This document shows, piece after piece, positions 1-54,653 of a stretch of DNA of 64,000 bases. The number at the start of each line of letters is the position of its first letter. Within the stretch, counting starts at the first letter, position 1. The translations under genes and the position numbers were made by a program. The notes under the pieces were generated by a model. It was not told the origin of the DNA, did not search any database, and was given only the letters and a program-made list of their open reading frames with translations. This stretch comes from Candidatus Moraniibacteriota bacterium (GTDB lineage Bacteria > Patescibacteriota > Minisyncoccia > Moranbacterales > UBA1568): positions 3,818-67,817 of the forward strand of contig JAGOBM010000004.1 in assembly GCA_017983435.1 (NCBI GenBank), read 5' to 3'.

Positions 1-1771
1 CAGACATCTGCAGATTTTTCTTTTTGAGCCAGCGGCTATGCTCTGGCCGGTAGAGATTGCGTCCGCGGTGCGAGAGGACGGCATAGTCGAAGCGCTGCTG
101 CGCAGCAGCCTCATATTCCATCGATAGACAGTGGCCCTTGAAGAATTCGCAGACGCCGTAGTAGTCGCTCCAGATGAGCAAGTGCTCTGCATTGGGCAGG
201 CTGTTGAGATATTGGGCAGCTTCGTAGCCTCCGTAGCCCCAGGAGTGATGGACGATCTCTTGTTTCGGCAGGAGGAGATTCGTATAGTTGAATGCGAATG
301 GCAGGGCCATGATGAGACTGCCGAGCGAGGCGATAGCGATGACTGCTCTGAGCTCGCGATTTCTCTGCCTGAGCAACTGGGAGAGAGGCGCGATAGCGGA
401 AGCGGCGAGAATAGCGATGATGGGATAGAGCAGGATGAGGTAGCGGGCGGTGGCGAGCACTTCGGAGAACAGTATTGCGATCAGGAAAAAGAATACGAAC
501 ATGAGCAGAGCGAAATTCTCGAAGCGAAGGCTCGATGCAAAGAGCTTCGGAAAGCGATCCTTGAGGAGAGAAGCAGCAAGATGCCAGCCGAAGAGGAGCA
601 GTACGATCGGCGGAATGGAGAATATGAGGGGGTTGAGTTCGAGCAGAGAGGCTTCGGCGAGGTTGGGCGCATAGGATTTGTCGAGCTTGTCACTGCTATA
701 GAGATCCTTGAGATCGAAAGGTATTTTTTCGAAGAGGGACCATTCGGGGAAGAATATCCGGCCGGCGATGAGTGCTATACCGGCGATCAGGAATAAGAGT
801 GAGACGGACCGTTCGATATGGGAAAGAGCGCTGATTTTTTTGACGAAAGCTGAAAGCATGGTCATGAATCGAGGCTGCCAGAGAACGATCACTCCGATGG
901 CAACGAAAGAGAGAAGCATCGGAAAGATCGGAAATCCGGCTTCGCCTCCGGCGAGGAGGTCGGCGAGCAAAGATGGCTTGAGCCAGATAGCCGGCAGGAA
1001 GAGAGCGATGACGAGCGTGCTGATACCGAGAATCGAAAAGAAAAAGAGCATGTTTCGACGGAGTATCAATCTGAGATTCTCGGGAGAAGTATCTCTCTGG
1101 AAGAGGATGTCGGTACCGATGAGAAAGATGAAGAAAGGCAAGAGGAAGCTTGCGGTATATTTCGAGAGTATGGCCATGCCGAGCAGGATGCCGGAGAGCA
1201 CGACGAATTTCCGTTCGTGTAGCTTGAGGAGTGCGAGGAAAGACAGGAGTGCCGCAGTGCCGAATGACCAGAGGAGTGCATCGGGGTTGATGATCTGGGT
1301 CATGCCGACGAGAATCGGCGAAAAAGCGATGAGCAGAGCGGCTGCGATGGCGGTATCGCGTCCGTAGAGCCGGGCCAGCAGCCAGGCGATGAGTATGAGG
1401 AGCAACGCATTGGCTACCAGGATCGGAATCCGGAAGGCGAGCAACGTCGCTGTCGCTCGTCCGCTGTCGCAGGTCGAAATCTGGAATTCGTCTTCGGAAC
1501 AGAGAGAAGCTGGATCGGGCTCGAAGAGAAGCCCGGTGCCGGAGAGGAGAGCGATTGAGACTCCGGGTTTGTCATTGATCGCGGTCTTTTTCCATTCGCC
1601 GGATTCCCATGCCTGCCAGTAGGCAGGGATGCGCTCGTAGATCCAATAGTGCTCATCAGCCGTGATGAATCGGCCGAGATGTTGCGCGCCGAAAAAGAGA
1701 TAGGCAGCGACGATGAGGCCGATCGGGAGGGAGAGGGGATATTTTCGGAACAAGGAAGCGATCAAGTGCAT
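1..1771 (-). CDS. GT-C fold polytopic membrane glycosyltransferase (PMT/ArnT-like, GT39/GT83-type); 3' end beyond window; paralog of 1778-4063 lacking the N-terminal ~170 aa
   Basis: Minus-strand frame is open from ATG at 1771 to the window edge, so it is missed by the ORF track (no in-window stop). Translation MHLIASLFRKYPLSL...DEHYWIYERIPAYW...SFLLPFFIFLIG...GYGGYEAAQYLNSLPNAEHLLIWSDYYGVCEFF is colinear with the 761-aa neighbor (compare GSGSYEAAQYLNSLPNAESMLVWTDKDGVCKFF). Nucleotide similarity is visible between 120-220 and 2030-2130. Forward ORFs 131-796 and 708-1367 are acidic antisense artefacts. Confidence 0.75.
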   Translation of the reverse strand, partial: MHLIASLFRKYPLSLPIGLIVAAYLFFGAQHLGRFITADEHYWIYERIPAYWQAWESGEWKKTAINDKPGVSIALLSGTGLLFEPDPASLCSEDEFQISTCDSGRATATLLAFRIPILVANALLLILIAWLLARLYGRDTAIAAALLIAFSPILVGMTQIINPDALLWSFGTAALLSFLALLKLHERKFVVLSGILLGMAILSKYTASFLLPFFIFLIGTDILFQRDTSPENLRLILRRNMLFFFSILGISTLVIALFLPAIWLKPSLLADLLAGGEAGFPIFPMLLSFVAIGVIVLWQPRFMTMLSAFVKKISALSHIERSVSLLFLIAGIALIAGRIFFPEWSLFEKIPFDLKDLYSSDKLDKSYAPNLAEASLLELNPLIFSIPPIVLLLFGWHLAASLLKDRFPKLFASSLRFENFALLMFVFFFLIAILFSEVLATARYLILLYPIIAILAASAIAPLSQLLRQRNRELRAVIAIASLGSLIMALPFAFNYTNLLLPKQEIVHHSWGYGGYEAAQYLNSLPNAEHLLIWSDYYGVCEFFKGHCLSMEYEAAAQQRFDYAVLSHRGRNLYRPEHSRWLKKKNLQMS

Positions 1772-1777
1772 AACCCG

Positions 1778-4063
1778 TTATTCCGAGAACGGATAGACGC
1801 GCACATACTGCGATGGCCGGTCATTGATATTGAGTTCCCAGGCCGGATCTGGCTGCGTGTAGTATTGGTCGAAACGGATGAGTCCAGGTTTCTGGCTGAG
1901 AATCTCGCCAGCCATCATCTTGGCGGTCCGGTTCTTGCGGTCAGATGAGACGACGATATAATCGAGCCCGTCGCGGCGGAGTGCCTCGTAGTTACGACCG
2001 CGCTTGCAGCGTCCGATGAAGAATTTGCAGACACCGTCCTTGTCGGTCCAGACGAGCATACTCTCCGCATTAGGGAGGGAATTGAGATACTGGGCGGCCT
2101 CATAGCTGCCAGACCCCATGTCTTTCACATTGGTATGCTGGTCGTTCGGAAGGAGCGAAGAGGCATAGGAGAGAGGAAATGGTGTCGTGGCGAGCGTCGC
2201 GGTACCGAGAGCGAGAATGAGGATCGCTACGGGGATTTCTGGAATCCGACGAAGGAACGCGAAGCGGGCGCCGAGCGTCTCCAGGAGCCAGGCGAGGGTG
2301 ATGCCGGCGATGATGGCTGCGATCGGGAAGAGAATGATCTGATAGCGGACGATCATGGCGACGTTGTTGACCGTGGCGCCGAGATAGTAGAGGAGGATGA
2401 AGGCAATCAGATAGAGAGCGGCGCGACCGGCAGTACTTTCGAGGAAAGTTTTCTTAAACAGCGCCAAGGGGATGCTGAGGACCAGGAGGAGCGAAAGCGG
2501 CAGGATACCGAAGATAAGCGGATAGAAATTGGTGAGGAAAATGCCGATGAAGTCGCTCCTGGTGGCGATGGTTTTCGGTGATGATAGGAGTTCGGAGAAG
2601 TCGTACGGGACCAGGCTGTTCCAGGAGATGACGAGCGTAGCGATGATGCTCGCGCCGAAGAGACTGCCGAGAAGAATTACGAACGGCCGTTTGACGCGAT
2701 CGAACGTGTCGATGACCGCGCTGATGATGCGTGCCCGATTGCCGATCTGGTCCACCAGGATAAAAGCGATGAGGATAAGGAAGAGCGGCGCGACTTTTTC
2801 GAAGGCCTGGCTGTAGATGGTCGAAGTCAGGAGTTTCTCTGGTTTGATCCAGACAGCCGGGAAGAGGACATAGAATGTCGCAAGCGCAGCGTAGGTGAGG
2901 ATGCCGAGCTCTATCAGGGATTGCTTGAGGAAAGTTCCGAAGCGCTGGTGTTCTGGGCGGTGGTAGAGGAATTCGAGAAAGATGAGGCCGATAAAGAAGA
3001 CGAAGAGGATATTGGCCACGTATTTGGTCAGGAGAGCGAGACCGAGAAAGATGCCGGAGAGGATGAGATAGCGAGCGAAGCGTTTCTCAAGGAAGATGAA
3101 ATAAGAGAGAAGTGAGAGCGGTGCGAAGAGCCAGAGGAGTGAGTCAGGATTGATGATCTTTGACATGCCGATGAGAATCGGCGAAGTAGCGATGAACGCG
3201 TAGGAGAACAAGGCAGTCTTCCGTCCGAGGAGGCGCTCAAGGAAGAAGTAGAAGAGCGGAAGGAGCAGGGTGATAACGATGAGTTCCGGGAGCCGGAAGG
3301 CGAGAAAGAAGCTCTCGATGCTGTCCTGGTTGCGAGTATAGGCCTCTCCCTCGTATTTGGTCGTCTTGTAGGCTTTCGGATCCTTGAACCAGAGTCCCGG
3401 TCCGGTGGACAGCGCGACGGTGATGCCGGGCTTATCGCTGATGCTCGTGCCTTTCCAATCGCGCTCCTCGATATTGTGCCAGTATTTTCCGATGCGCCCG
3501 TTGTACCAGAGCGGCTCATCAACGGCAGCGAACTTGGTGAGGTTGATCATGGCGAAACTGAAGAAGATGAATGTCCCCACGAAGACAGAGAGGAGAGCGA
3601 ATGACCCTTGGCGACGGAACCACTCGCGAGCGGTCAGGCTATCGGAGTGCCGCTGGCTCGAGCTTCGCAGGTGCGAGAGTGCGATTGAGGAGACGAAGAG
3701 TCCGGCGAGCATCATATAGCCGCTCTGCGCGATCTGGAAAACGTAGTGGAAATTCCTGGATTCGATGATGCCATAGGTCAGTACGAACCAGGCGGGGAAG
3801 GTAGCGAGGAGACCTTTCTTGAGCCAGGATCGCCACGCAGTCGGTCGGTGGTAGTAGAAGAGTATGCCGGTGAGAGTAATACCGAAAAAAGCGAATCCGG
3901 CGTAGAAAGGAGTATTGCTTTCGGCGAAGCGGAGGAAAATAAGAGAATCGGTCTGGCGGGCGATGAAAAAAAGCGTATTGATAGCAAGAAGAATGCTGAT
4001 AGCTGAGAGGAAGCGGTTTTCGACAGTGGTCAGAACGTGCTCTAAGGGTTTCCCGAGTGTCAT
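1778..4063 (-). CDS. GT-C fold polytopic membrane glycosyltransferase (dolichyl-phosphate-mannose protein mannosyltransferase / ArnT-like), 761 aa
   Basis: Long ORF with more than 12 predicted TM helices. The N-terminal loop (DEPLWYNGRIGKYW) and the hydrophobic core are typical of PMT_2/ArnT family. Has a C-terminal soluble domain. Paralogous to three neighbors. Confidence 0.7.
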   Translation of the reverse strand: MTLGKPLEHVLTTVENRFLSAISILLAINTLFFIARQTDSLIFLRFAESNTPFYAGFAFFGITLTGILFYYHRPTAWRSWLKKGLLATFPAWFVLTYGIIESRNFHYVFQIAQSGYMMLAGLFVSSIALSHLRSSSQRHSDSLTAREWFRRQGSFALLSVFVGTFIFFSFAMINLTKFAAVDEPLWYNGRIGKYWHNIEERDWKGTSISDKPGITVALSTGPGLWFKDPKAYKTTKYEGEAYTRNQDSIESFFLAFRLPELIVITLLLPLFYFFLERLLGRKTALFSYAFIATSPILIGMSKIINPDSLLWLFAPLSLLSYFIFLEKRFARYLILSGIFLGLALLTKYVANILFVFFIGLIFLEFLYHRPEHQRFGTFLKQSLIELGILTYAALATFYVLFPAVWIKPEKLLTSTIYSQAFEKVAPLFLILIAFILVDQIGNRARIISAVIDTFDRVKRPFVILLGSLFGASIIATLVISWNSLVPYDFSELLSSPKTIATRSDFIGIFLTNFYPLIFGILPLSLLLVLSIPLALFKKTFLESTAGRAALYLIAFILLYYLGATVNNVAMIVRYQIILFPIAAIIAGITLAWLLETLGARFAFLRRIPEIPVAILILALGTATLATTPFPLSYASSLLPNDQHTNVKDMGSGSYEAAQYLNSLPNAESMLVWTDKDGVCKFFIGRCKRGRNYEALRRDGLDYIVVSSDRKNRTAKMMAGEILSQKPGLIRFDQYYTQPDPAWELNINDRPSQYVRVYPFSE

Positions 4064-4065
4064 AG

Positions 4066-5952
4066 ATGTTGTACCATTGGGTTAGACCAAGCTCCGGGTT
4101 GCGGAGCTGGTTCCGACCCCATAATAGCGCAAAACCTATGGATATTAAAGGCGATCACGGGCAATGGCGGACGGCCATTGTTTTTGCGATGCTACTGGTC
4201 CTGTGTGCTGGTTTCTTCCTCCGGAGCTATCATTTCTCCGATTGGCTGCATTTCGAGCTTGATCAGGCTCGGGATGCCCGGGTTATCGATGCGGCTATCG
4301 ACGGTTCGGCAGCAGACTTGCCGCTCCTCGGTCCCAAGGCGGGAGGGACTTTTCTCCGTCTCGGGCCATTTTTCTATTATTTCCAGTATGCGACCGGACT
4401 GGTATTCGGCGCGGATCCGGCTGGCTATGCGACCGGGGTCATGCTGCTCTCGGTAGCGACGCTCGCCGTCTTCTTTCTGCTCGTTCGACGCTTCTTCATC
4501 GATCGGATTGCGATTGGGCTCACAGCGATTATGGCGGTGTCGCTGTTTTTCGTCATGTATGGCCGCTTCGCTTGGAATCCGAATCCATTACCATTCTTTG
4601 TCCTGTCGGGACTCTATGCACTCTTGCGGTCTGTCGATACGCATGAAGAGCAGAGAGGATGGTGGTTTGCAGGAGCCGTAGCGATGTTTGGTATCGCATC
4701 GCAGCTGCATTTCCTCGCGTTTCTTGCGTTGCCGGCAATACTCGGTGTGTTTCTCATCTTGCGACGACCGCGTTATCCGTGGAAGGCATGGATCGGAGCG
4801 ATCGCGATGGTCGGGCTTCTTTATCTCCCAGTTATCCTGAATGAAATAGAGACTAGAGGGCAGAATTCACAAGAATTCATGGCGGCGATTACGGAAAAAT
4901 CGACCAAAGAGGAACACATGTTGGCTGAGAAATTCCTGCGTGATGTGAGCGAACATGGCTTGGCAGCGCTCGTCATAACGACCGGTTTTGAGGGAGGAAT
5001 GTTTCCGTCGTTGCGCATCGAGAATGGCGGTATCGGCAGCTATTGCTTCGGTCGCTGCGATGAAGGGAAATGGTACGGATTGGCAGCTGTGCTCGTGCTC
5101 GGTATGTCGATTCTGGCTTTTTTCTGGCTCTGGTGGCGAGAGCGCGAACGGATCAAAGCGGATTTCCTGCTGCTTATGGGCATCTGGTTTGTGGTTACTT
5201 TTATCTTGTTTCTGCCTTTGTCATATGGCATCGCTCCAAGATTCTTTCTCCTTTCCGGGCCGCTCTTTCTGATTTTCCTCGGGGCGCTCTGCGTCATGAT
5301 CGAGCGGATACTGCACCGTCATCATATCGGAAAGATCATTGCTATGTCGGCGGTAGTCCTTCTCGTAGGGTCGAATCTTTTCTTCGTGTCGAAGCGTTTC
5401 GATGAGCTCTCGCGTGCGGGCAGTGAGGCAATAGTGAGCGAGCCGGATCGGGTACTCAAGGAGCGCATCCGAGTGACGCTGGAGCAGCAGACAGGGATCA
5501 TTGATCTTCTAGAGTCTCGCTCAAAGGAACATGGATATCCGGTGTATATGTTCAGCGAGCCGCAGCATCGCCGGGCGCTCAAGTATCTGCTTGAACAAAG
5601 AGGAATTGAGAATGCCGTGCTCGGGTTTGACGGAGTGTATCGTCAGGGTGTGTACTATCTGATTCTGCGATCCCAATCCGATCACGAGGATGCGCTGAAG
5701 AAATATCGCGAGAGCTATATCGTCGGCAAGAAAACAGAATTCGGGACGCTGGTCGCCTTCGAACTTACTCCGAAGCCGGAGGCGATTATCGGAGAGCGGC
5801 AGGATTTCAGCATCAAAAAACCTTCAGATTCTCAGGCGCCGCCGCGCTATACCTGGCGTGAGTGGTTCGGTCGGAACCAGGCGGCATCGGTGGATAGCGA
5901 TACGGAAGACACACTCGACGGACCAGAGGATGTGACTGATGAAAGCAATTAA
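4066..5952 (+). CDS. GT-C fold membrane glycosyltransferase (ArnT/PMT-like); probable true start at Met25 (4138)
   Basis: Polytopic membrane ORF with an ArnT-like N-terminus (DQARDARVIDAAIDGSAADLPLLGPKAGGTF). Divergent from the 1778-4063 gene. The internal Met at 4138 leaves a ~75-bp intergenic spacer. Confidence 0.7.
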   Translation: MLYHWVRPSSGLRSWFRPHNSAKPMDIKGDHGQWRTAIVFAMLLVLCAGFFLRSYHFSDWLHFELDQARDARVIDAAIDGSAADLPLLGPKAGGTFLRLGPFFYYFQYATGLVFGADPAGYATGVMLLSVATLAVFFLLVRRFFIDRIAIGLTAIMAVSLFFVMYGRFAWNPNPLPFFVLSGLYALLRSVDTHEEQRGWWFAGAVAMFGIASQLHFLAFLALPAILGVFLILRRPRYPWKAWIGAIAMVGLLYLPVILNEIETRGQNSQEFMAAITEKSTKEEHMLAEKFLRDVSEHGLAALVITTGFEGGMFPSLRIENGGIGSYCFGRCDEGKWYGLAAVLVLGMSILAFFWLWWRERERIKADFLLLMGIWFVVTFILFLPLSYGIAPRFFLLSGPLFLIFLGALCVMIERILHRHHIGKIIAMSAVVLLVGSNLFFVSKRFDELSRAGSEAIVSEPDRVLKERIRVTLEQQTGIIDLLESRSKEHGYPVYMFSEPQHRRALKYLLEQRGIENAVLGFDGVYRQGVYYLILRSQSDHEDALKKYRESYIVGKKTEFGTLVAFELTPKPEAIIGERQDFSIKKPSDSQAPPRYTWREWFGRNQAASVDSDTEDTLDGPEDVTDESN

Positions 5953-31749: not shown

Positions 31750-31783
31750 ATCCTACGAAGACGCAGACCTATTTGTGAAAAAA

Positions 31784-31806
31784 GAGGCCGACCTGGCCTC
31801 TTTTTC
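31784..31806 (+). terminator. intrinsic terminator after groES
   Basis: GAGGCCGACCTGGCCTC hairpin followed by T5. Confidence 0.65.
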
Positions 31807-31907
31807 GTATCCACCGAGAGGTGTCCGGTTGACTTTTCTGCTCGGATTCTCTATAAAAAAGAGTCCCAGTAGATGGGTATTTCTCAACGCAGGCAGAGGA
31901 GGGGATT

Positions 31908-32333
31908 ATGTTTTTTGACAAAGATACTTTTCAGAAGATCCTGGCGGCTCAATGTCTCAAGTTCGGTATCGAATCCGGTCAGGCATGGGAGCTCATGCCG
32001 CATGTCTTCGCCGCAGAGCTCCGCGCAAAAGGCGAATCGGATTGGACGACGGCTTTCTATTTCGACTCTCGCGAGCTGAAACGGCGCTGCCTATACGCGG
32101 ATATAGATCAGCTCGCGAAGCTTCTTGTACTGGCGGGGCTCATAGTGGGGTGTCCGTCTGAAGATCTAGATAACCCTATCCGTATAGCGTATTTTGTTAA
32201 TGATAGGGATCCTGTCGGACAAGATCCGAAAAATATCATCAATTACGCATCCCAGCTTTTCGTCAAACTGGATGATAGCGAGGTGGAGTGGCCCGATTCC
32301 GCCAAGCCCATTGAATTCGATCGAAGTCCTTGA
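31908..32333 (+). CDS. hypothetical protein
   Basis: 141-aa ORF. RBS-like gaggggatt precedes ATG. Confidence 0.4.
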   Translation: MFFDKDTFQKILAAQCLKFGIESGQAWELMPHVFAAELRAKGESDWTTAFYFDSRELKRRCLYADIDQLAKLLVLAGLIVGCPSEDLDNPIRIAYFVNDRDPVGQDPKNIINYASQLFVKLDDSEVEWPDSAKPIEFDRSP

Positions 32334-32349
32334 AAGGGAGAAATCAGTT

Positions 32350-32490
32350 ATGAGCACCGCCCAAATGCTGTACCTCGGGGCTATCGCCGCGGTCTGCCTG
32401 TTCTGCAAATACAGGATCGACCGGCAATACGCCTGGTATCGAAAGAATCGAGACGAAGAAAGAGCTTACTGGTCCGAAATCGGCATGTAG
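32350..32490 (+). CDS. small hydrophobic protein (46 aa), hypothetical
   Basis: Strong SD aaagggag 7 nt before ATG 32350. MSTAQMLYLGAIAAVCLFCKY TM helix. The longer track ORF 32194-32490 is unlikely. Confidence 0.35.
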   Translation: MSTAQMLYLGAIAAVCLFCKYRIDRQYAWYRKNRDEERAYWSEIGM

Positions 32491-32561
32491 GCCCGTCATC
32501 AACCCAAGCGCACGACCAATACCGGTACGGCGCTTTTTGTTTTGTGGTGTGGGCTTTTGCG

Positions 32562-32590
32562 TTGACTTTTCTATATATATGTGATATAAT
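32562..32590 (+). promoter_or_regulatory. consensus sigma70-type promoter (TTGACT-17-TATAAT)
   Basis: TTGACT at 32562-32567, exact 17-nt spacer, TATAAT at 32585-32590. Downstream SD aggaga and ATG at 32662. Confidence 0.6.
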
Positions 32591-32661
32591 GGAAAGTCCA
32601 TAACGGACACCGGTTAGCGGAATGCTAGCTCTTTACCAACTACGGAACGTAGGAGATTGCA

Positions 32662-33663
32662 ATGAACCCGAATGCACCCAAGAATCGCGAATTCATCAAG
32701 CGGTACCCTTTTCTCTCGGCTATCATCAATAGTGATATGGAGCCGTCGCCTATCTTTAGTCCAGTGAACGATCTCACCATCCACGTCAAAAAGGCTGATG
32801 GCGATCTGATGTTCAGGCAAGCCCACAATGTCGGTCTCGCTGGTGACTCGTCGTGCATCTTTCAACTCACGGACAAGCGCAAAGGACAGGTCATGCGGCG
32901 CGGCGAATACCTTTTCGCTGTCGATAGCAAGATGAATATCATCAATCGTGTAGATTGGCCCCGTAACGACGAGGAACGGAAAGTAACCGGGGAAATCTAT
33001 GGCCGTAAGGTGTTCTGGTCAAAGAAGACTTCTTTCACCAATGGGAGCCCGTGTTACACGGATCCGATTTTCGATACGACCGAGTATCTCGTCTGGCTTA
33101 CCGTCGAAGCATGGCATGCGGATACGGAGGACAATGGTGGACTGGGTAGCCGGTTCGGCAAGTTCATCGACCGCTCTGTCGATATCACGATCTACCGTAA
33201 GCCTGAACAGGGCTTCCGGGAGCTTGAGGAGGAATCTAGTGTCTACTCGAATCTTTCGCTAGACACCCGGCTGATGATGCGCGGCGCTCTCGAGAAGAAT
33301 CCTGATATCCTCATCATGAGCGGCATGCTGTACGAGATGTGCATCTTCTTTCAGGATGAAGTGTATTTCAACGGTATGAAGGCAATCCTCGACGAAGGGA
33401 CATTTCGCGGCGCATCCGGCCAGTTTGGTCCGGTCAAAGTGCTGTGTGCCGAAATGTGCGGGTATGACCGCATCATGCTTGAGGATGCCACGAGCTACGT
33501 AACCTTCCAGCTCCGTCCTGGGTCGAAGCACCTCTACGTGCTCGGACAGCAGGGGACGCTGCCTCGGATCCGCAATCTCGTACGGACCGTCGTAAAGATG
33601 TGGGGAGAAAACCCCGCATCGCGCGCTGCGTTCAAACCGGACGAGAACGTCTCTGTCTTGTAG
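32662..33663 (+). CDS. hypothetical protein (333 aa)
   Basis: Driven by the consensus promoter, with good SD. No recognisable motif. Confidence 0.5.
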   Translation: MNPNAPKNREFIKRYPFLSAIINSDMEPSPIFSPVNDLTIHVKKADGDLMFRQAHNVGLAGDSSCIFQLTDKRKGQVMRRGEYLFAVDSKMNIINRVDWPRNDEERKVTGEIYGRKVFWSKKTSFTNGSPCYTDPIFDTTEYLVWLTVEAWHADTEDNGGLGSRFGKFIDRSVDITIYRKPEQGFRELEEESSVYSNLSLDTRLMMRGALEKNPDILIMSGMLYEMCIFFQDEVYFNGMKAILDEGTFRGASGQFGPVKVLCAEMCGYDRIMLEDATSYVTFQLRPGSKHLYVLGQQGTLPRIRNLVRTVVKMWGENPASRAAFKPDENVSVL

Positions 33664-33713
33664 TAGGTCGCGCAAGCTGACCTACTCAGCCAAGAGTCGT
33701 CTCTAGTATCTTT

Positions 33714-33760
33714 CCCGCCATGCTCACATTGTGAGCCTCTGGCGGGTTTTATTTATTTTA
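33714..33760 (+). terminator. intrinsic terminator (nested hairpin + T-rich tract)
   Basis: CCCGCCA...TGGCGGG outer stem with inner GCTCACA/TGTGAGC stem, then ttttatttatttta. Confidence 0.55.
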
Positions 33761-33764
33761 TGAT

Positions 33765-34535
33765 TTGAAGTTTTTGTCGTCACGACATATTCTTAGAAAC
33801 TGGTATACTTATTGCATGAAAGAAACATTTTCTACAAAACTTCTTAAGAAGAGTCAAAGAGCACTCTTTATTGTTACGGGCATTACTGCTGTGGTAGGTA
33901 TTGTTTCGTTTTCTTATTCACTTTTTAATTTTGGTGATCTTAAAATCCCGAATGTTACAGCTGCTTTTGCTACTCTTTCACTTTTCTCATTATTTCTTGC
34001 TATTGGGCTTAATATTTTTTCTTACCTTGATCGATATGAAGAAAAGCTATTTCAGAATATTGAAAACAGCAAAAGAGGCATTGAGGGTGAAAGGCTAGCA
34101 AAAGAGCTAATATCCAAAACAGTTGGGACGAGCCATGGAGCATTCTTCAATAAAGATCTTCCTACGGGAGGTGACATAGATTGTCTTATCCTAGGCAAGA
34201 AAGGTCTGATTCTTATAGAAATCAAGAATTTCTCAAAACAAATAAGGTTGCCGTTGTTCTGGACCAAAGGCTTCGATGACCCTCGAAATGAAGCTAAGAG
34301 GCACGCCACGAGTCTTCTGGAGTACTTTGTTGAAAATGGTTATCGTAAACCGCTTAAGATTCGTAAAGCGGTTCTCTATATCAATAAAGAGGTAGTTTAC
34401 TGGGGTAAGCAGGAAGTTTTCAATATCAGGGGATTGGATCGATTCGCTCCATATTTCTTCAGCCTTCCTCTAGATAGTGCTATTACAGAACAGGATATAG
34501 CTGAGATTTCTTCGTTTATTGAAAAGTTGAAATAA
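33765..34535 (+). CDS. NERD (nuclease-related domain) protein with N-terminal TM anchor
   Basis: GGDIDCLILGKKGLILIEIKNFSK...LPLFWTKG matches the NERD signature. Region is AT-rich (~35% GC) versus ~59% in the flanks. Possible start at 33816. Confidence 0.55.
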   Translation: MKFLSSRHILRNWYTYCMKETFSTKLLKKSQRALFIVTGITAVVGIVSFSYSLFNFGDLKIPNVTAAFATLSLFSLFLAIGLNIFSYLDRYEEKLFQNIENSKRGIEGERLAKELISKTVGTSHGAFFNKDLPTGGDIDCLILGKKGLILIEIKNFSKQIRLPLFWTKGFDDPRNEAKRHATSLLEYFVENGYRKPLKIRKAVLYINKEVVYWGKQEVFNIRGLDRFAPYFFSLPLDSAITEQDIAEISSFIEKLK

Positions 34536-34539
34536 AGGT

Positions 34540-35202
34540 ATGTTTGATAAAGAATCTCTTTTCTCTGGGTTGCTGGCATTTTATTTTTTTTGGTTTATTT
34601 TTATTGGGCCCTTGGTCTTTTGGTATCTTTTTCGCAGGAAGCTTTTTTTCTATGCGTATTTCGTGGCGTTTATTTGGTGGTGTTATCTTTGGAGAATAGG
34701 TATTCCGTTGATACTTCTTAGTTTTTTGGGCGACAATATCTTTACCGATGTCATCATGTGGCTCTCCAGTTTTTTCACTAGCCTGTCAGTCCTGCTGGTT
34801 TTCATTCTGCTTATAATGGCTGTGAACTTCCTTTTGCAGGGAAAGATGCTGCAGATCGTAGGCATTCTTTTATTGCTTCCGGTGCTTTGGCTGTCTTCTA
34901 TGGAATCAAAATTTCTTTTTTACCCTCTTATAGATACCGCTCATTCGGAAAAATTTACCCTTAAAAAATTTAAAAGTATAAATCCTGGGATGACAAGAAG
35001 CGAAGTGGAGTACCTGATTGGCAAGCCTCATCCGAATGCTGGCGGATACTTTGCTGGTATGAATGGCTGTGAATCTCAAACAGGGGATAACGGATCGCTC
35101 GCTCAAAGCTTTGGACTGGACTTCGCCTGGCTCGACTCTGCAGTCTGTTATGATGAAAACGATAGAGTGACTGAAATCAAGATGGGGTATGTACCTGATT
35201 GA
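34540..35202 (+). CDS. polytopic membrane protein with C-terminal BamE/SmpA-OmlA-like domain
   Basis: 5-6 TM helices then KFKSINPGMTRSEVEYLIGKPHP (SmpA_OmlA-like). AT-rich like the preceding gene, 4-bp spacing (operon). Confidence 0.45.
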   Translation: MFDKESLFSGLLAFYFFWFIFIGPLVFWYLFRRKLFFYAYFVAFIWWCYLWRIGIPLILLSFLGDNIFTDVIMWLSSFFTSLSVLLVFILLIMAVNFLLQGKMLQIVGILLLLPVLWLSSMESKFLFYPLIDTAHSEKFTLKKFKSINPGMTRSEVEYLIGKPHPNAGGYFAGMNGCESQTGDNGSLAQSFGLDFAWLDSAVCYDENDRVTEIKMGYVPD

Positions 35203-35244
35203 AATTGAGAGTTATCAAGCGGTTCTCGTATACAACAAAAACCG

Positions 35245-35790
35245 ATGAATACATATATCATACTCATACGCGGGATCAATGTCGGCGGGAAGAACAAAAT
35301 ACCGATGGCAGGCCTGAGGCAATGCCTGGAGGGTCTCGGGTTCACCGATGTGGCGACCTATATCGCGAGCGGCAATGCTATGCTCCGCTCCGACCGCTCA
35401 GCCGATGAGGTAGCAGGCATGATCGAAGCGGCTCTGCCGAAGAGCTTCCAGCTCGATAGCGAGCTCGTCAGAGTTCTCGTACTCTCTCGAAAGGAGCTCC
35501 AGTCTGTCATCGACCGCAAGCCAGAGGGATTCGGCGAGCAGCCGGAGAAGTATCACAGCGATGTGATCTTTCTCATGGGTATCGATGCGGACCAGGCTTT
35601 GGCAGTCTTCCATCCGCGGGAGGGCGTCGATAGGGTATGGCCGGGCGAGGGCGTGATCTACTCGGAGCGTCTGAGCGCCTTGCGTACCAAGAGTCGGCTC
35701 AGTAGGATCGCCGGCACGCCAGAGTACCGATCCATGACCATCCGCAACTGGAATACGACGACTCGGCTGCTCGCTATGCTCGAGCAATAA
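35245..35790 (+). CDS. DUF1697 family protein
   Basis: MNTYIILIRGINVGGKNKIPMAGL is the DUF1697 N-terminal signature. GC-rich again. Confidence 0.6.
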   Translation: MNTYIILIRGINVGGKNKIPMAGLRQCLEGLGFTDVATYIASGNAMLRSDRSADEVAGMIEAALPKSFQLDSELVRVLVLSRKELQSVIDRKPEGFGEQPEKYHSDVIFLMGIDADQALAVFHPREGVDRVWPGEGVIYSERLSALRTKSRLSRIAGTPEYRSMTIRNWNTTTRLLAMLEQ

Positions 35791-35796
35791 TACGAA

Positions 35797-35828
35797 AAAC
35801 CATCCGGTACTTGGATGGTTTTTGTTTT
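35797..35828. terminator. bidirectional intrinsic terminator
   Basis: ACCATCC GGTACTT GGATGGT perfect 7-bp hairpin flanked by A5 and T4GT4. Confidence 0.7.
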
Positions 35829-35832
35829 GATC

Positions 35833-47116: not shown

Positions 47117-47884
47117 TCATGCTTGATGCAGCATGGTTACTTGATTGCGACCACGCTTTTTAGAGAGGTAGAGCGCCTGGTCGGCCACTTCGAGGAGCGG
47201 ATCTATTATTCCGAGAACTTCGTCCCCTACCGCATCGCGCAAAAACTTGGCGGGAGTCACGAGTTGTGATGTGACTCCGCAGCTCAGAGTGATCCGGACA
47301 TCGCTGCACGCGTATATTTGTTCTACAGAGTGACGAAGATGATCTGCCATCGTGTGAGCGATTTTGGCGGATGTCTTTGGAAGGATGATGACAAATTCAT
47401 CTCCGCCGTAGCGACAACAAATATCCATTTTCCGATGGAATGTTTCCTTGATATGTCGACTGATGGTGCGAATTACTTTGTCGCCTGCCTTGTGTCCGCA
47501 TTGGTCATTGATTGATTTGAAGTGATCGATATCGATCATGATGACTGATATGTGGATAGCGGTATCCTTCGACTGACGTTCGCGTGAGATAAGGCCAAGT
47601 TCGATTTGAAGTGCCTCCTGAGCGCCGCGACGATTGAAAAGTCCCGACAATGCATCGATTGTCGCCCCTTGTTCGGCGCGTATGGCCCGGTCCCAGAACG
47701 TGATAGCAGTGAATATCGGCATAATTATGAAGCCGACCGAGAGAGCGACTGCGTAGAGCTCCTTCATTGGTTGCTCTGGAATCAGATGGAGTAGGAGTGC
47801 TAGCAGGAGAAATCCTGGGGTGAGCAATCCTACGAGTAGCACCATTACGTCTTTGTTGATACGCGTTATGGGCAGCGTTCTCAT
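47117..47884 (-). CDS. diguanylate cyclase (GGDEF domain) with two N-terminal TM helices
   Basis: LSGLFNRRG...IDIDHFKSINDQCGHKAGD...CCRYGGDEFVIILP, an intact GGDEF active site. Confidence 0.8.
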   Translation of the reverse strand: MRTLPITRINKDVMVLLVGLLTPGFLLLALLLHLIPEQPMKELYAVALSVGFIIMPIFTAITFWDRAIRAEQGATIDALSGLFNRRGAQEALQIELGLISRERQSKDTAIHISVIMIDIDHFKSINDQCGHKAGDKVIRTISRHIKETFHRKMDICCRYGGDEFVIILPKTSAKIAHTMADHLRHSVEQIYACSDVRITLSCGVTSQLVTPAKFLRDAVGDEVLGIIDPLLEVADQALYLSKKRGRNQVTMLHQA

Positions 47885-52085: not shown

Positions 52086-52122
52086 TTGGCTGAGGCTCTG
52101 GGACGATGTTGGAACTTACTTG
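52086..52122. repeat. ~35-bp 3'-UTR repeat, copy 1
   Basis: ggctgaggctctgggacgatgttggaacttacttg. A near-identical copy lies at 52481-52515. Confidence 0.5.
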
Positions 52123-52466
52123 GTATCAGTCCACTCACCTGAATTCTCATCATAATTGGACAAAGTGTCTCCCCCTACGCACATGCCATCCTCCACCGGA
52201 CCGATAAAGTACGCCACATCAACCAGCGTATTTGCTGCTTTTGTTTCCTGATAGTTGCCTGAGCGCCTGTAAGAAAAAAGCGAGACATCTCCTTGGTCAT
52301 CTACGGTAACCACTTCGTGCAAATAAACACCTTTCTCGTCTTCCAGCGTCCTGACTATTTCTGGATTTTCTTGGCCGCATAATTTTTCAATTTTTGCCTT
52401 CGCTTCTTCCAATGAAAGGAAACGTGGTTCTTTTTCGGCAGCTGGCATCGGGTTTTCAAAATTCAT
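52116..52466 (-). CDS. hypothetical protein
   Basis: 116 aa. Lies in a lower-GC segment. Confidence 0.4.
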   Translation of the reverse strand: MNFENPMPAAEKEPRFLSLEEAKAKIEKLCGQENPEIVRTLEDEKGVYLHEVVTVDDQGDVSLFSYRRSGNYQETKAANTLVDVAYFIGPVEDGMCVGGDTLSNYDENSGEWTDTK

Positions 52467-52480
52467 ACATTTGAAGTTAA

Positions 52481-52515
52481 AAAATAGGCTGAAGCTCTGG
52501 GACGAAGTTGGAGAT
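52481..52515. repeat. ~35-bp 3'-UTR repeat, copy 2
   Basis: ggctgaagctctgggacgaagttggagattatttg. Confidence 0.5.
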
Positions 52516-53174
52516 TATTTGATATAAGTCCAGTAGTCTCCGGATCCTACTATATCCAGTTTTCCATCGGAAATCCGTATCGCGGTTTGATCATCGGTAG
52601 CGTACACTGAGTGATTGAGCGAGTTTTTGAGTCCTTCCAAAACATCCTTTCTCACACGGGAGAACCATTCGGAATTGAGATGCGGGACGAACGAGAAATC
52701 ATAGAATTCCATGGGGTGTTCAAGCGTAGTACCGAAGTCTTCTTCCGGATAGATTGCTTTCAGTAATTCGCGAGATAGGTATTGACCCGCAACCATACTC
52801 CCCGCGCTGATGCCCATGTAAACCTTGGTATCCAGCATGGAAAGGAGGAATTCCTTCATTCCGATTTCCTTGAAAATTTTTGCGAGATATTGTTCATTCC
52901 CTCCACCAAATGAAATGATATCTGCTTCTTGCAGGCGCCTCTTCCATAGCTCAGGAGATACGGCAGCTACATCGAGGATATCAATGGATTTGAAGTGTCG
53001 TTTCTGAAGATTGACGAGATCATCGATAACCCAGCTTTTATCACCGCTTTCCGTATTTGCAGCTGTCGGTATATGGATTATTGAGAGTTCAGAAAGAGAG
53101 CGTCCGGCAAGCTCGGACAGAGCTTCAGCGATAACATCGTTTGTGAGACCCGCAGAAGTGAGAAGGAGTTTCAT
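52515..53174 (-). CDS. peptidase S51 family (dipeptidase E / cyanophycinase-like)
   Basis: MKLLLTSAG...GGGN...GISAGS (Ser nucleophile) layout of the S51 family. Confidence 0.65.
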   Translation of the reverse strand: MKLLLTSAGLTNDVIAEALSELAGRSLSELSIIHIPTAANTESGDKSWVIDDLVNLQKRHFKSIDILDVAAVSPELWKRRLQEADIISFGGGNEQYLAKIFKEIGMKEFLLSMLDTKVYMGISAGSMVAGQYLSRELLKAIYPEEDFGTTLEHPMEFYDFSFVPHLNSEWFSRVRKDVLEGLKNSLNHSVYATDDQTAIRISDGKLDIVGSGDYWTYIK

Positions 53175-53207
53175 AGATTTTGAGACTTTTTGACGAATTT
53201 GGAACTT

Positions 53208-53762
53208 TTATATTTCAAAATCCGCCTTTAATTTCTGGATAAATCGATGCATATGAGGATCAAAAGATGAGGTCGGAGCTTGTAATATTTCATCAAAAGT
53301 AAACCATTTATACCCATTAAATTCACCTGGATCGTATCGGATTTCATCCTGGATTCCTCCTGATAGGAGATACCATAGGCTGACATCTTTATGTCCAGCG
53401 GTTTTCCCTACAGTAGTGGTAATTGTCAGAAAAAAAGGATTTCCCCTAATAAATTTTGCTGTAAGGTTTAACTCCTCCATCGCTTCTCTTTCCACGGTTG
53501 CTTTAGGATCTTCATCCGCCTCTACATGCCCACCTGCTGGAAGCCAGAGTTCCGCTTTTATGTGGTCTACCAAAAGAATAGCTTTATTTTCAATATCTAT
53601 TACAACAAAATATGAAACAAGATGTTTTGGTGGTTTGTCGGGTTTTTCAATCCGAAAAATCTCTACTCCACTTTTAATCCAATGAAGGGCATCTTCTTGA
53701 TGAGTTTTTTCTAATTCATCAATCGGAGAAATTTTCTCTATCAGTTCTAAGTTCCGTTTCAT
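53208..53762 (-). CDS. NUDIX hydrolase
   Basis: Nudix box GGHVEADEDPKATVEREAMEELNL. Confidence 0.75.
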   Translation of the reverse strand: MKRNLELIEKISPIDELEKTHQEDALHWIKSGVEIFRIEKPDKPPKHLVSYFVVIDIENKAILLVDHIKAELWLPAGGHVEADEDPKATVEREAMEELNLTAKFIRGNPFFLTITTTVGKTAGHKDVSLWYLLSGGIQDEIRYDPGEFNGYKWFTFDEILQAPTSSFDPHMHRFIQKLKADFEI

Positions 53763-53857
53763 TATACGAAGAACCTGAGTTTATATATTGGCTTTCGTTC
53801 TCCTCAAAACGAGATACGAGTAATTTAAGTCTTTCCAACCTTTCTATTTTCATTTCT

Positions 53858-54058
53858 TTATTCAGCTTTGTTTATAACCTTCAAAACATCTCCCTTTCTA
53901 TAGCGTCTATCTTTTCTTGCCCCGAATCGGATTGCTTTCAGGATCCCTTTATTGTCCCAGTTGCGGAGGGTGTTCGGGTGGCAGTGCAAAATAGCGCACG
54001 CTTCGGAAAGTGTGAGGATGTCCGGCACTTCTTTGGTTTTTTCGGATTGTTTTTCCAT
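53858..54058 (-). CDS. excisionase-family / HTH_17 small DNA-binding protein
   Basis: 66 aa. LTLSEACAILHCHPNTLRNWDNKGILKAIRFG...RRY matches the MerR-like excisionase-family HTH. Confidence 0.55.
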   Translation of the reverse strand: MEKQSEKTKEVPDILTLSEACAILHCHPNTLRNWDNKGILKAIRFGARKDRRYRKGDVLKVINKAE

Positions 54059-54107
54059 CGATTTGGACTTACTATGAGTTTACAACCATTTGCACACATG
54101 AGCAAGT

Positions 54108-54413
54108 ATGAGGAAAACTAACAATACAGGCGAGATATTGCCGTATATCGACGAGGATATTCTTTTTCTTATCCTCAAACTTGCCGATTACCCATTCGGA
54201 AAGAAACGAACAATCAGCTATGAAGAGCTTCGGGGGCAACAAGACGATTCTACGTTTATAAAAATGATGCACGCGCTACTCGAAATGAGACATGCATTAG
54301 GTGGCATTGAAATACCTGATCTAAAAATCAATGTGCACTATTTCAGAAAGAAAAGGGGTCAGGTACCTTTTTATAAATGCTGGGGAGGAAGGGAAATCTC
54401 ACTACTCGGCTGA
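54108..54413 (+). CDS. hypothetical protein
   Basis: 101-aa ORF in an AT-rich segment. A competing minus-strand ORF 54072-54272 exists. Weak RBS. Confidence 0.3.
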   Translation: MRKTNNTGEILPYIDEDILFLILKLADYPFGKKRTISYEELRGQQDDSTFIKMMHALLEMRHALGGIEIPDLKINVHYFRKKRGQVPFYKCWGGREISLLG

Positions 54414-54540
54414 TAGGAATCGAGCCTGCGTTCAATAGGGCTTCCACCCTCTTGTCCTCGAAGACGAGGTCACCCCAAGCGGGGAAAACCTTTTTCCCCG
54501 ACCCCCTTTTGTTCGATCCCTTCCTCTCAATATAAAACTA

Positions 54541-54580: not shown

Positions 54581-54581
54581 G

Positions 54582-54653
54582 CTGGGGAGGAAGGGATCGA
54601 ACCTTCGCATGGCGGGACCAGAACCCGCTGCCTTACCGCTTGGCTACTCCCCA
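54582..54653 (-). tRNA. tRNA-Gln (anticodon CTG)
   Basis: Cloverleaf folded by hand: acceptor TGGGGAG/CTCCCCA, D-arm GCC-AAGCGGTAA-GGC, anticodon stem GCGGG/CCCGC with loop TTCTGGT (CUG), T-arm GAAGG-TTCGATC-CCTTC, discriminator G. CCA not encoded. Confidence 0.8.

Follow-up and report, generated by a model that had tools for sequence, protein, structure and literature searches.

A membrane-anchored NERD protein and a BLIP/BamE-like membrane protein encoded in an AT-rich patch of a Candidatus Moraniibacteriota genome

Do two adjacent genes that stand apart from their surroundings in base composition, and that both encode membrane proteins, work together as a defence module, or did they arrive at the same place independently? 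The question is raised by an AT-rich patch at 33760-35210 of a 64,000-nucleotide (nt) stretch of contig JAGOBM010000004.1 from a Candidatus Moraniibacteriota bacterium; this whole stretch is referred to below as the window. The patch holds two open reading frames (ORFs), ORF1 for a membrane-anchored protein with a NERD nuclease domain and ORF2 for a polytopic membrane protein. A reading made from the letters of the window (hereafter the sequence-only reading) had taken them for a horizontally acquired pair of a nuclease and a membrane partner, reminiscent of abortive-infection or toxin-like defence modules. Based on our analyses, we consider it reasonably probable that the patch is an acquired mosaic insertion in which ORF1 and ORF2 are independent accessory genes, ORF1 being a candidate defence nuclease. 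That ORF1 has a defence role, and that the two genes are independent of each other here, we infer from the contexts in which their relatives occur and from the proteins themselves.

Composition, origin and borders of the patch

The two genes and the segment that contains them are as follows.
33816-34535, forward strand: ORF1, a membrane-hairpin-anchored NERD (PD-(D/E)xK) protein of 239 amino acids (aa), with a NERD match of 40.8 bits and 10 full-length homologs
34540-35202, forward strand: ORF2, a polytopic membrane protein of 220 aa with a C-terminal BLIP/BamE-like domain, from a family of 8
31750-35832, no strand assigned: variable segment between the GroES gene (ends 31749) and the rhodanese gene (ends 35833), holding genes for proteins of 141 and 333 aa (hyp141 and hyp333), ORF1, ORF2 and a DUF1697 gene

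Both products have identical counterparts at NCBI, in a metagenome-assembled genome of Candidatus Moranbacteria, where they are named 'NERD domain-containing protein' (ORF1, 239 aa) and 'hypothetical protein KA731_02285' (ORF2). The ORFs of the sequence-only reading, at 33765-34535 (from a TTG, 256 aa as called) and, after a gap of 4 nt, at 34540-35202 (220 aa), are both present, with a revised start for ORF1. Its fall in guanine-plus-cytosine (GC) content to roughly 35% is also found, with a mean nearer 38%: GC is 0.385 (38.5%) over 33760-35210 against 0.54 for the whole window. Windows of 300 nt range from 0.31 to 0.43 within the patch and from 0.53 to 0.63 in the flanks, the drop at the left edge is from 0.58 to 0.31, and the lowest GC among all 64 1-kb bins is that of 34001-35000. 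GC at third codon positions (GC3) is 0.32 in ORF1 (z = -2.8) and 0.44 in ORF2 (z = -1.8), against a mean of 0.66 and a standard deviation of 0.12 for 44 genes of the window. Windowed GC and GC3 both mark the patch as an outlier.

Horizontal acquisition of the patch is well supported, since every contig that carries a relative of ORF1 or ORF2 has a GC content of 35-43%, as the patch does and unlike the host. Together with the foreign GC and GC3 of the patch and the adjacency of rhodanese and GroES genes in other genomes, this bears out the horizontal origin that had been proposed. Synonymous divergence (dS) between ORF1 and its nearest NERD relatives is ~0.65, and the actual donor is therefore unsampled. 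A chimeric assembly was considered and ruled out, because at least five assemblies or runs arrived independently at this gene order.

We compared related Moranbacteria loci using Fmt as an anchor. Rhodanese and GroES genes lie 59-141 bp apart in three of these loci (L023-L025), as against 4.1 kb in the window. Two other loci carry different cargo at this junction: 1.8 kb with an EamA-like transporter, a GFA-like protein and a small zinc-ribbon protein in L027, and 1.3 kb, including a 327-aa unknown protein, in L028. The convergent rhodanese|GroES junction is thus a recurrent insertion spot in Moranbacteria. For the closest relative, L022 (Fmt 79% identical), blastn homology to the window starts exactly at 35245, the start codon of DUF1697, and the L022 locus has neither a NERD gene nor ORF2. 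The flanks of the patch yielded no direct repeats, target-site duplication or att-like repeat, just short chance matches, and no integrase, transposase or recombinase was found among its neighbours. Given the break in synteny with L022, the cargo at the same junction elsewhere and the lack of repeats or a recombinase, the patch forms one of the layers in a mosaic at a junction prone to insertion. An Rfam scan of the whole window returned just two distant tRNAs.

The borders of the patch, and the resident gene to its right, are marked by four features.
33714-33760, forward strand: intrinsic terminator of the upstream gene for a 333-aa protein, at the left edge of the patch (stem 33714-33746 plus U-run)
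35203-35244, forward strand: right junction, a 42-nt spacer (fold z = +0.4), with synteny to the closest relative beginning at 35245
35245-35790, forward strand: DUF1697 gene, resident, of native GC (0.58; PF08002 E = 2e-36)
35795-35823, no strand assigned: bidirectional terminator common to DUF1697 and rhodanese (-14.9 kcal/mol, z = -3.3)

GC-rich terminators and genes had been described as bounding the patch, and a terminator is indeed present at the left edge, where the stem at 33714-33746 has a folding energy of -22.3 kcal/mol (z = -5.4) and none of 200 shuffled sequences folds as well. The right edge has none, since folding of the gap between ORF2 and DUF1697 (35203-35244) gave nothing terminator-like. 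With no terminator between them, DUF1697 is probably co-transcribed with ORF1-ORF2, and the hairpin at 35795-35823 is the likely end of an ORF1-ORF2-DUF1697 transcript. The DUF1697 product is 87% identical to its ortholog in L022, which also adjoins rhodanese. On the other side, hyp141 and hyp333 occupy 31908-33663 between GroES and the patch (GC ~0.50-0.53); searches of Pfam, PADLOC, NCBIfam and PHROGs matched neither of them, and the related Moranbacteria loci lack both.

Genomic contexts of ORF1 and ORF2 relatives

The independence of the two genes was assessed from the neighbours of their relatives. Six other NERD contexts were available, at identities of 87% (L001 and a JGI contig), 84% (L002-L005), 65% (L014), 58% (L012), 54% (L007) and 45% (L006), as well as five other ORF2 contexts, at 73% (L013), 60% (L011), 60% (L008/L009), 56% (L015/L016) and 51% (L010). 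An ORF2 relative was found near a NERD relative in 0/6 of the former, and a NERD relative near an ORF2 relative in 0/5 of the latter. The sole co-occurrence of the two is in the window's own population. The nuclease and membrane partner of the sequence-only reading thus never occur together in any other context sampled, the outcome that this reading had itself named as a refutation, and a conserved two-gene ORF1-ORF2 system is not supported.

At the DNA level, the similarity of the window to L001 and L002 is confined to the coding sequence of ORF1 (33811-34534). The gene that follows the NERD gene varies: it is ORF2 in the window, a 249-aa gene in L002-L005, a gene for a SngA-like TerB_N protein in L001, a gene for a 52-56-aa helical protein in L006 and L007, and another gene in L014. 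Both the 249-aa gene and a 199-aa gene of L006 were considered as hidden relatives of ORF2 and rejected, as neither has BLAST similarity to it.

The neighbours of the NERD relatives include several genes of defence type. L006 carries an Avs2-type STAND NTPase (PADLOC E = 7e-191), and in L012 a retron type XI reverse transcriptase-protease (2082-3740) lies 0.77 kb downstream of the NERD relative (PADLOC E = 1.5e-172; Pfam RVT_1 and Trypsin). An nSTAND_NTPase5 protein is encoded near the NERD relative in L002-3 and the JGI contig, and L001 and the JGI contig have a TerB_N protein like SngA of Shango (E = 3.5e-15), SocA_Panacea and an SNase protein. A weak NsnC-like neighbour (E = 3.6e-4) was found in L007. 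Defence-type neighbours are therefore clear in four of the six other NERD contexts and weak in a fifth, in a sample that is small and has no background rate. The defence flavour given to the locus by the sequence-only reading accordingly carries over to ORF1, through the neighbours of its relatives, and not to ORF1 and ORF2 as a pair.

Two features of these contexts were observed in addition. The match of the L006 Avs2-like protein (549-4484) to its profile begins at profile position 181, so this protein appears, from its sequence, to lack the effector normally found at the N-terminus; within 1 kb it is followed, in the same orientation, by small membrane proteins and by the NERD homolog with its membrane helices. 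The 52-56-aa helical proteins form a family of their own (M.P.FS.EL..R..EYF...), found at L006 6224-6394, L007 1395-1556 and L001 3652-3810. In L006 and L007 their ORF begins 1 nt after the NERD stop; in L001 a TerB_N gene intervenes. These proteins may serve as regulators or as partners of an antitoxin-like kind. The window has no detectable remnant of a small ORF after the NERD gene.

The contexts of ORF2 relatives are of a different kind. In L008-L010, genes of the ORF2 family occur as tandem paralogs, of 203 aa and then 218-244 aa, that are 39-45% identical (L008 1817-3101; L010 1416-3097). Downstream of them comes a gene for a conserved, cysteine-rich protein of 118 aa that weakly matches HNH/endonuclease VII. 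No defence genes were found near ORF2 relatives in the contexts examined.

Predicted structure of the ORF1 and ORF2 proteins

The following features of ORF1 bear on its start and its predicted activity.
33782-33809, forward strand: promoter-like site with extended -10 box TGGTATACT, found by consensus scan, ending 6 nt before the ORF1 ATG
33816-34025, forward strand: N-terminal anchor, from hydropathy, charge counts and the predicted model
34089-34091, forward strand: invariant E92, upstream of the catalytic core, from the homolog alignment
34173-34226, forward strand: catalytic core D120-I-D122 ... E135-I-K137, invariant in 10 homologs

The true start of ORF1 is probably the ATG at 33816, giving 239 aa, because all 10 homologs (239-248 aa) begin with MKETF or MKxT at the corresponding point and the NCBI product has this length. 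The TTG at 33765 was ruled out as a start on the same two grounds. No Shine-Dalgarno sequence was seen upstream of the ATG, which is why the transcript of ORF1 may be leaderless, with a promoter of its own. The sequence TGnTATACT is likewise present in L007 (~650-673), 9 nt upstream of the NERD ATG. The ratio of nonsynonymous to synonymous substitutions (dN/dS) between ORF1 and its closest relatives is 0.11-0.14, indicating purifying selection.

The membrane-anchored NERD domain of the sequence-only reading was recovered. PF08378 matches ORF1 over profile positions 1-107 of 111 (E = 3.5e-10), its 40.8 bits standing against a gathering cut-off of 22.1, and precomputed annotation assigns the same family to all 10 homologs. 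The Pfam scan of ORF1 returned NERD as its sole domain, and no DUF4041. The motif GGDIDCLILGKKGLILIEIKN lies at 34167-34229, and residues E92, D120, D122, E135 and K137 are invariant across the 10 homologs, leaving the E...(P)D...(D/E)xK pattern intact; DxD...ExK is retained in nearly all of ~80 distant relatives inspected. In a Foldseek search of the PDB, the top matches of the predicted model were all PD-(D/E)xK nucleases at probabilities of 0.9-1.0 (AF1548, NucS/EndoMS, Cdn1, Can2, R2 endonuclease, Bax1, McrC and Hjc). As modelled, the core is an alpha/beta fold of the restriction-endonuclease type, and on the strength of its residues ORF1 is a predicted nuclease.

The anchor of ORF1 consists of a basic N-terminal tail (aa 1-16), a first transmembrane helix (TM1, ~aa 15-37), a 9-aa outer loop and a second helix (TM2, ~aa 47-70); the tail holds 4-7 K/R residues in all 10 family members. 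The AlphaFold model has a mean predicted local distance difference test (pLDDT) score of 79, and 88-93 over most of the NERD domain. In the model, helices span residues 5-40 and 47-103, such that TM2 runs on unbroken to aa 103 as a stalk that leads into the alpha/beta core. By the positive-inside rule, applied to the basic tail and the two helices, the NERD domain would be cytoplasmic, held on a helical stalk of ~35 residues beneath the membrane.

The close family of ORF1 consists of 10 clusters among 5.8 billion proteins and is metagenome-only. An exhaustive profile search gave 288 representatives at E <= 1e-3, 75 of them at E <= 1e-10, and most of the matches listed are 240-265 aa long, match over their full length and have one or two N-terminal membrane helices. 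Since the representatives mostly keep the length, the helices and DxD...ExK, the hairpin-stalk-NERD architecture is, judged by sequence, a real if small family. Searches with other resources were negative: a PDB sequence search with the NERD-family profile gave no solved relative, an NCBIfam scan gave no model for the ORF1 subfamily and nothing useful, profile searches of genome, viral and metagenome contigs with the NERD alignment gave no confirmed relatives, and tblastn of ORF1 against phage and plasmid collections gave no match.

ORF2 belongs to a family of just 8 members, 2 of them tandem paralogs, among the same 5.8 billion proteins. It too is under purifying selection, with a dN/dS of 0.12 relative to L013. 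Its product has two parts.
34555-34905, forward strand: membrane region of ~4-5 helices (aa 6-122), from the predicted model and hydropathy
34945-35199, forward strand: extracytoplasmic BLIP/BamE/OsmE-like domain (aa 136-220), from profile and fold matches

The model and hydropathy thus give ~4-5 helices in place of the 5-6 first counted. Loops at aa 31-35 and 98-103 are basic and that at aa 63-71 is acidic; this charge pattern and two cysteines invariant in the family, C177 and C203, place the C-terminal domain, as predicted, outside the cell. Two stretches of the model, aa 123-138 and 184-197, are of low confidence (pLDDT < 50).

The tail of ORF2 had been likened to SmpA_OmlA (BamE), and the likeness stands at the level of the superfamily. 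Searched against the PDB, the ORF2 family profile matches one repeat of the Streptomyces beta-lactamase inhibitory protein (BLIP) with E = 6.4e-8, and Foldseek matches the domain to BamE and OsmE at probabilities of 0.97-0.99 and a target TM-score of ~0.5. Membership of the tail in the BLIP/BamE superfamily is therefore supported. The match to BamE itself (PF04355) scores 20.6 bits, below the cut-off of 23.2, and covers aa 142-164 (profile positions 7-29 of 71); across family members, BamE is matched in 6/6 and BLIP in 3/6, all below threshold. A true BamE was rejected for ORF2 on this score and because the protein has a 4-5-helix anchor in place of a lipobox. Envelopes of Patescibacteria, including Moranbacteria, are not known to have an outer membrane, so that on this ground as well as for want of a lipoprotein signal ORF2 cannot be BamE. 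BLIP, BamE and OsmE resemble the C-terminal 85 aa of ORF2, and all are extracytoplasmic protein-binding modules. BLIP, however, is a tandem pair of domains, whereas ORF2 has a single domain fused to its membrane anchor. A viral fold search with ORF2 gave just two small matches of BLIP/BamE size, profile searches of viral and metagenome contigs with the ORF2 alignment found no confirmed relatives, and tblastn against plasmids gave no match.

Possible roles and rival explanations

NERD proteins with added membrane helices were reportedly noted already in the original 2004 description of the domain; set against the NERD family at large, ORF1 represents a distinct subfamily, marked by its two-helix hairpin and long stalk. 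NERD appears among the PD-(D/E)xK families whose function is unknown (PMC3424549), and most NERD proteins are functionally untested (10.1101/2021.11.23.469651; PMC3424549). In known defence systems, NERD domains occur in Mokosh type I (MkoA) and in Nhi-like systems (PMC10952713), and ZwsA is a NERD RNA endonuclease of RNA-phage defence in which E535, D567, E580 and K582 were tested by mutation (10.64898/2026.04.06.716636). The spacings from D to E and from E to K in ZwsA are identical to those of ORF1 (D122/E135/K137), and that from the upstream E to D is 32 residues as against 30. MkoA and the Nhi-like proteins are large helicase fusions and ZwsA is a soluble multidomain protein, while ORF1, at 239 aa, adds to its NERD domain a membrane anchor only; the helicase or VHS/DUF647/S4 domains found among these proteins are absent from it.

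The working model for ORF1 follows the logic of SNIPE. This GIY-YIG nuclease is bound to the membrane, cuts phage DNA while it is being injected and is toxic once freed from the membrane, such that tethering separates self from non-self (10.1101/2025.11.03.685801). Both SNIPE and, as predicted, ORF1 are small, with an anchor in the cytoplasmic membrane and, joined to it by an elongated linker, a nuclease domain on the cytoplasmic side. They differ in their parts, as SNIPE combines a single membrane helix with a DUF4041 DNA-binding domain and a GIY-YIG domain, and ORF1 combines two helices with a PD-(D/E)xK (NERD) domain; the likeness is one of logic without homology.

Because its family recurs, in the contexts sampled, beside genes of defence type and with a changing downstream neighbour, ORF1 would be a self-sufficient or promiscuously partnered membrane-tethered nuclease. 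It may cut foreign nucleic acid, DNA or RNA, at or near the point of entry, and by analogy with the unrelated SNIPE its tether might keep it off the cell's own nucleoid. ORF2 would be an unrelated envelope protein that exposes one disulfide-bonded BLIP/BamE-like domain outside the cell, most likely for protein-protein binding at the cell surface or wall. The two genes would share a transcript here for having landed in the same spot.

A bolder version of this proposal is tentative, and we regard it as possible rather than probable: that proteins of ~250 aa with the hairpin-stalk-NERD architecture make up a so far undescribed family of single-gene defences against phages or plasmids in uncultured bacteria of low GC, probably Patescibacteria. 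The tethered nuclease would either destroy nucleic acid during its passage through the membrane, in convergence with SNIPE, or serve as a trans-acting membrane effector for STAND/Avs sensors that have no effector, and in this lineage it would have been coupled to ORF2 as an outward-facing BLIP-like sensor. If true, it would be a second, structurally unrelated case after SNIPE of a strategy to cut DNA at the membrane.

Several observations weigh against independent genes with a defence role for ORF1. The sample of contexts is small, many of the contigs are short, and three NERD homologs (P0005, P0006 and P0009) were left out of it. In five of the seven NERD contexts, the window included, the next gene begins 1-8 nt past the NERD stop, and for this reason ORF1 may usually work with a variable downstream partner. 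In the window, ORF1 and ORF2 are 4 nt apart and of low GC with no terminator between them; they lie in one predicted transcript and could stem from one unsampled donor. No defence genes were found near the locus itself, the neighbours being housekeeping genes (GroES, Fmt, Def and PriA). Searched against PADLOC-DB 2.0.0, ORF1 has MkoA as its best match with E = 0.04 and 9.5 bits and ORF2 has no match, so that neither protein has a meaningful match and the pair, as the sequence-only reading had supposed, is no described system; PHROGs gave nothing for five proteins of the island region. Lastly, the fold matches of ORF1 are weak (E ~2e-3 to 0.1, TM-score ~0.3), since half of the model is membrane helix.

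The same spacing, shared transcript and low GC, together with the membrane location of both proteins, would fit a lineage-specific two-gene system in which ORF2, by means of its BLIP/BamE-like domain, responds to phage adsorption, DNA injection, envelope damage or the like on the outer side of the membrane and activates or positions ORF1 inside. A variable gene usually sits tightly coupled in the slot after NERD, as with swappable sensors, and at least five independent assemblies of this population all retain the pairing. However, the two families co-occur in no other context, the relatives of ORF2 pair with a paralog of their own instead, and the GC3 values of the two genes are unlike (0.32 vs 0.44). 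The variable genes after NERD have no common feature and no PADLOC match was obtained, and we consider such a system rather unlikely.

An alternative that seems to us improbable is that ORF1 acts as a toxin, in the manner of abortive-infection or toxin-antitoxin effectors, and needs an adjacent controller such as the upstream STAND NTPase or the downstream 52-56-aa protein, and that in the window it is orphaned, decaying or held in check by ORF2. L002 and L006 do have STAND/Avs2 genes 1-1.7 kb upstream of the NERD gene and in its orientation, the L006 protein seemingly without its N-terminal effector region, and the small helical ORF follows the NERD stop by 1 nt in L006 and L007 and comes after the TerB_N gene in L001. 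This small ORF is nevertheless missing from four of the seven contexts, including the window; no homology is detectable between the STAND genes of L002 and L006, and the contigs of L007, L012 and L014 hold no STAND gene. In the window, moreover, ORF1 is intact and under purifying selection.

SmdA of Staphylococcus aureus, a cell-division factor with a membrane helix and a NERD-like domain, is a precedent for a NERD protein that is anchored in the membrane and functions in division (10.1101/2021.11.23.469651). Its layout, with a membrane anchor at the N-terminus, a long helix and a NERD-like domain in the cytoplasm, is similar to that predicted for ORF1. As published, SmdA is a 302-aa product of an essential Staphylococcaceae core gene with one helix and a partial NERD match in which several conserved NERD residues are missing, whereas ORF1 was acquired as an accessory gene and keeps all of the catalytic residues. 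A housekeeping role for ORF1 at the membrane, in division as for SmdA or in degrading imported DNA for nucleotide salvage in a nucleotide-auxotrophic bacterium, would suit the position of the locus among GroES, Fmt, Def and PriA, but is highly improbable for a gene that is foreign in composition, absent from the closest relative and other Moranbacteria, rare and patchy (10 close clusters in 5.8 billion proteins), complete in the most conserved NERD residues, several of which SmdA lacks, and flanked elsewhere by defence genes.

Under our preferred explanation of an acquired mosaic insertion with two independent accessory genes, the result is in practice mainly negative: the ORF1-ORF2 operon is a local accident of insertion, and ORF1 alone is worth further effort. 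As the defence systems known from genomes of Patescibacteria are few (PMC12366544), ORF1 offers a small and easily testable candidate for membrane-localised nuclease defence.

Elsewhere in the window, a second low-GC patch at 52100-54500 (GC 0.39-0.44) is probably another acquired segment. It holds genes for a Peptidase_S51 protein (52515-53174, reverse strand) and a NUDIX protein (53208-53762, reverse strand), with GC3 values of 0.27 and 0.46, and adjoins tRNA-Gln at 54581-54653. A gene for a protein with a GGDEF diguanylate-cyclase domain (47117-47884, reverse strand) has a GC content of 0.50, somewhat under that of its surroundings.

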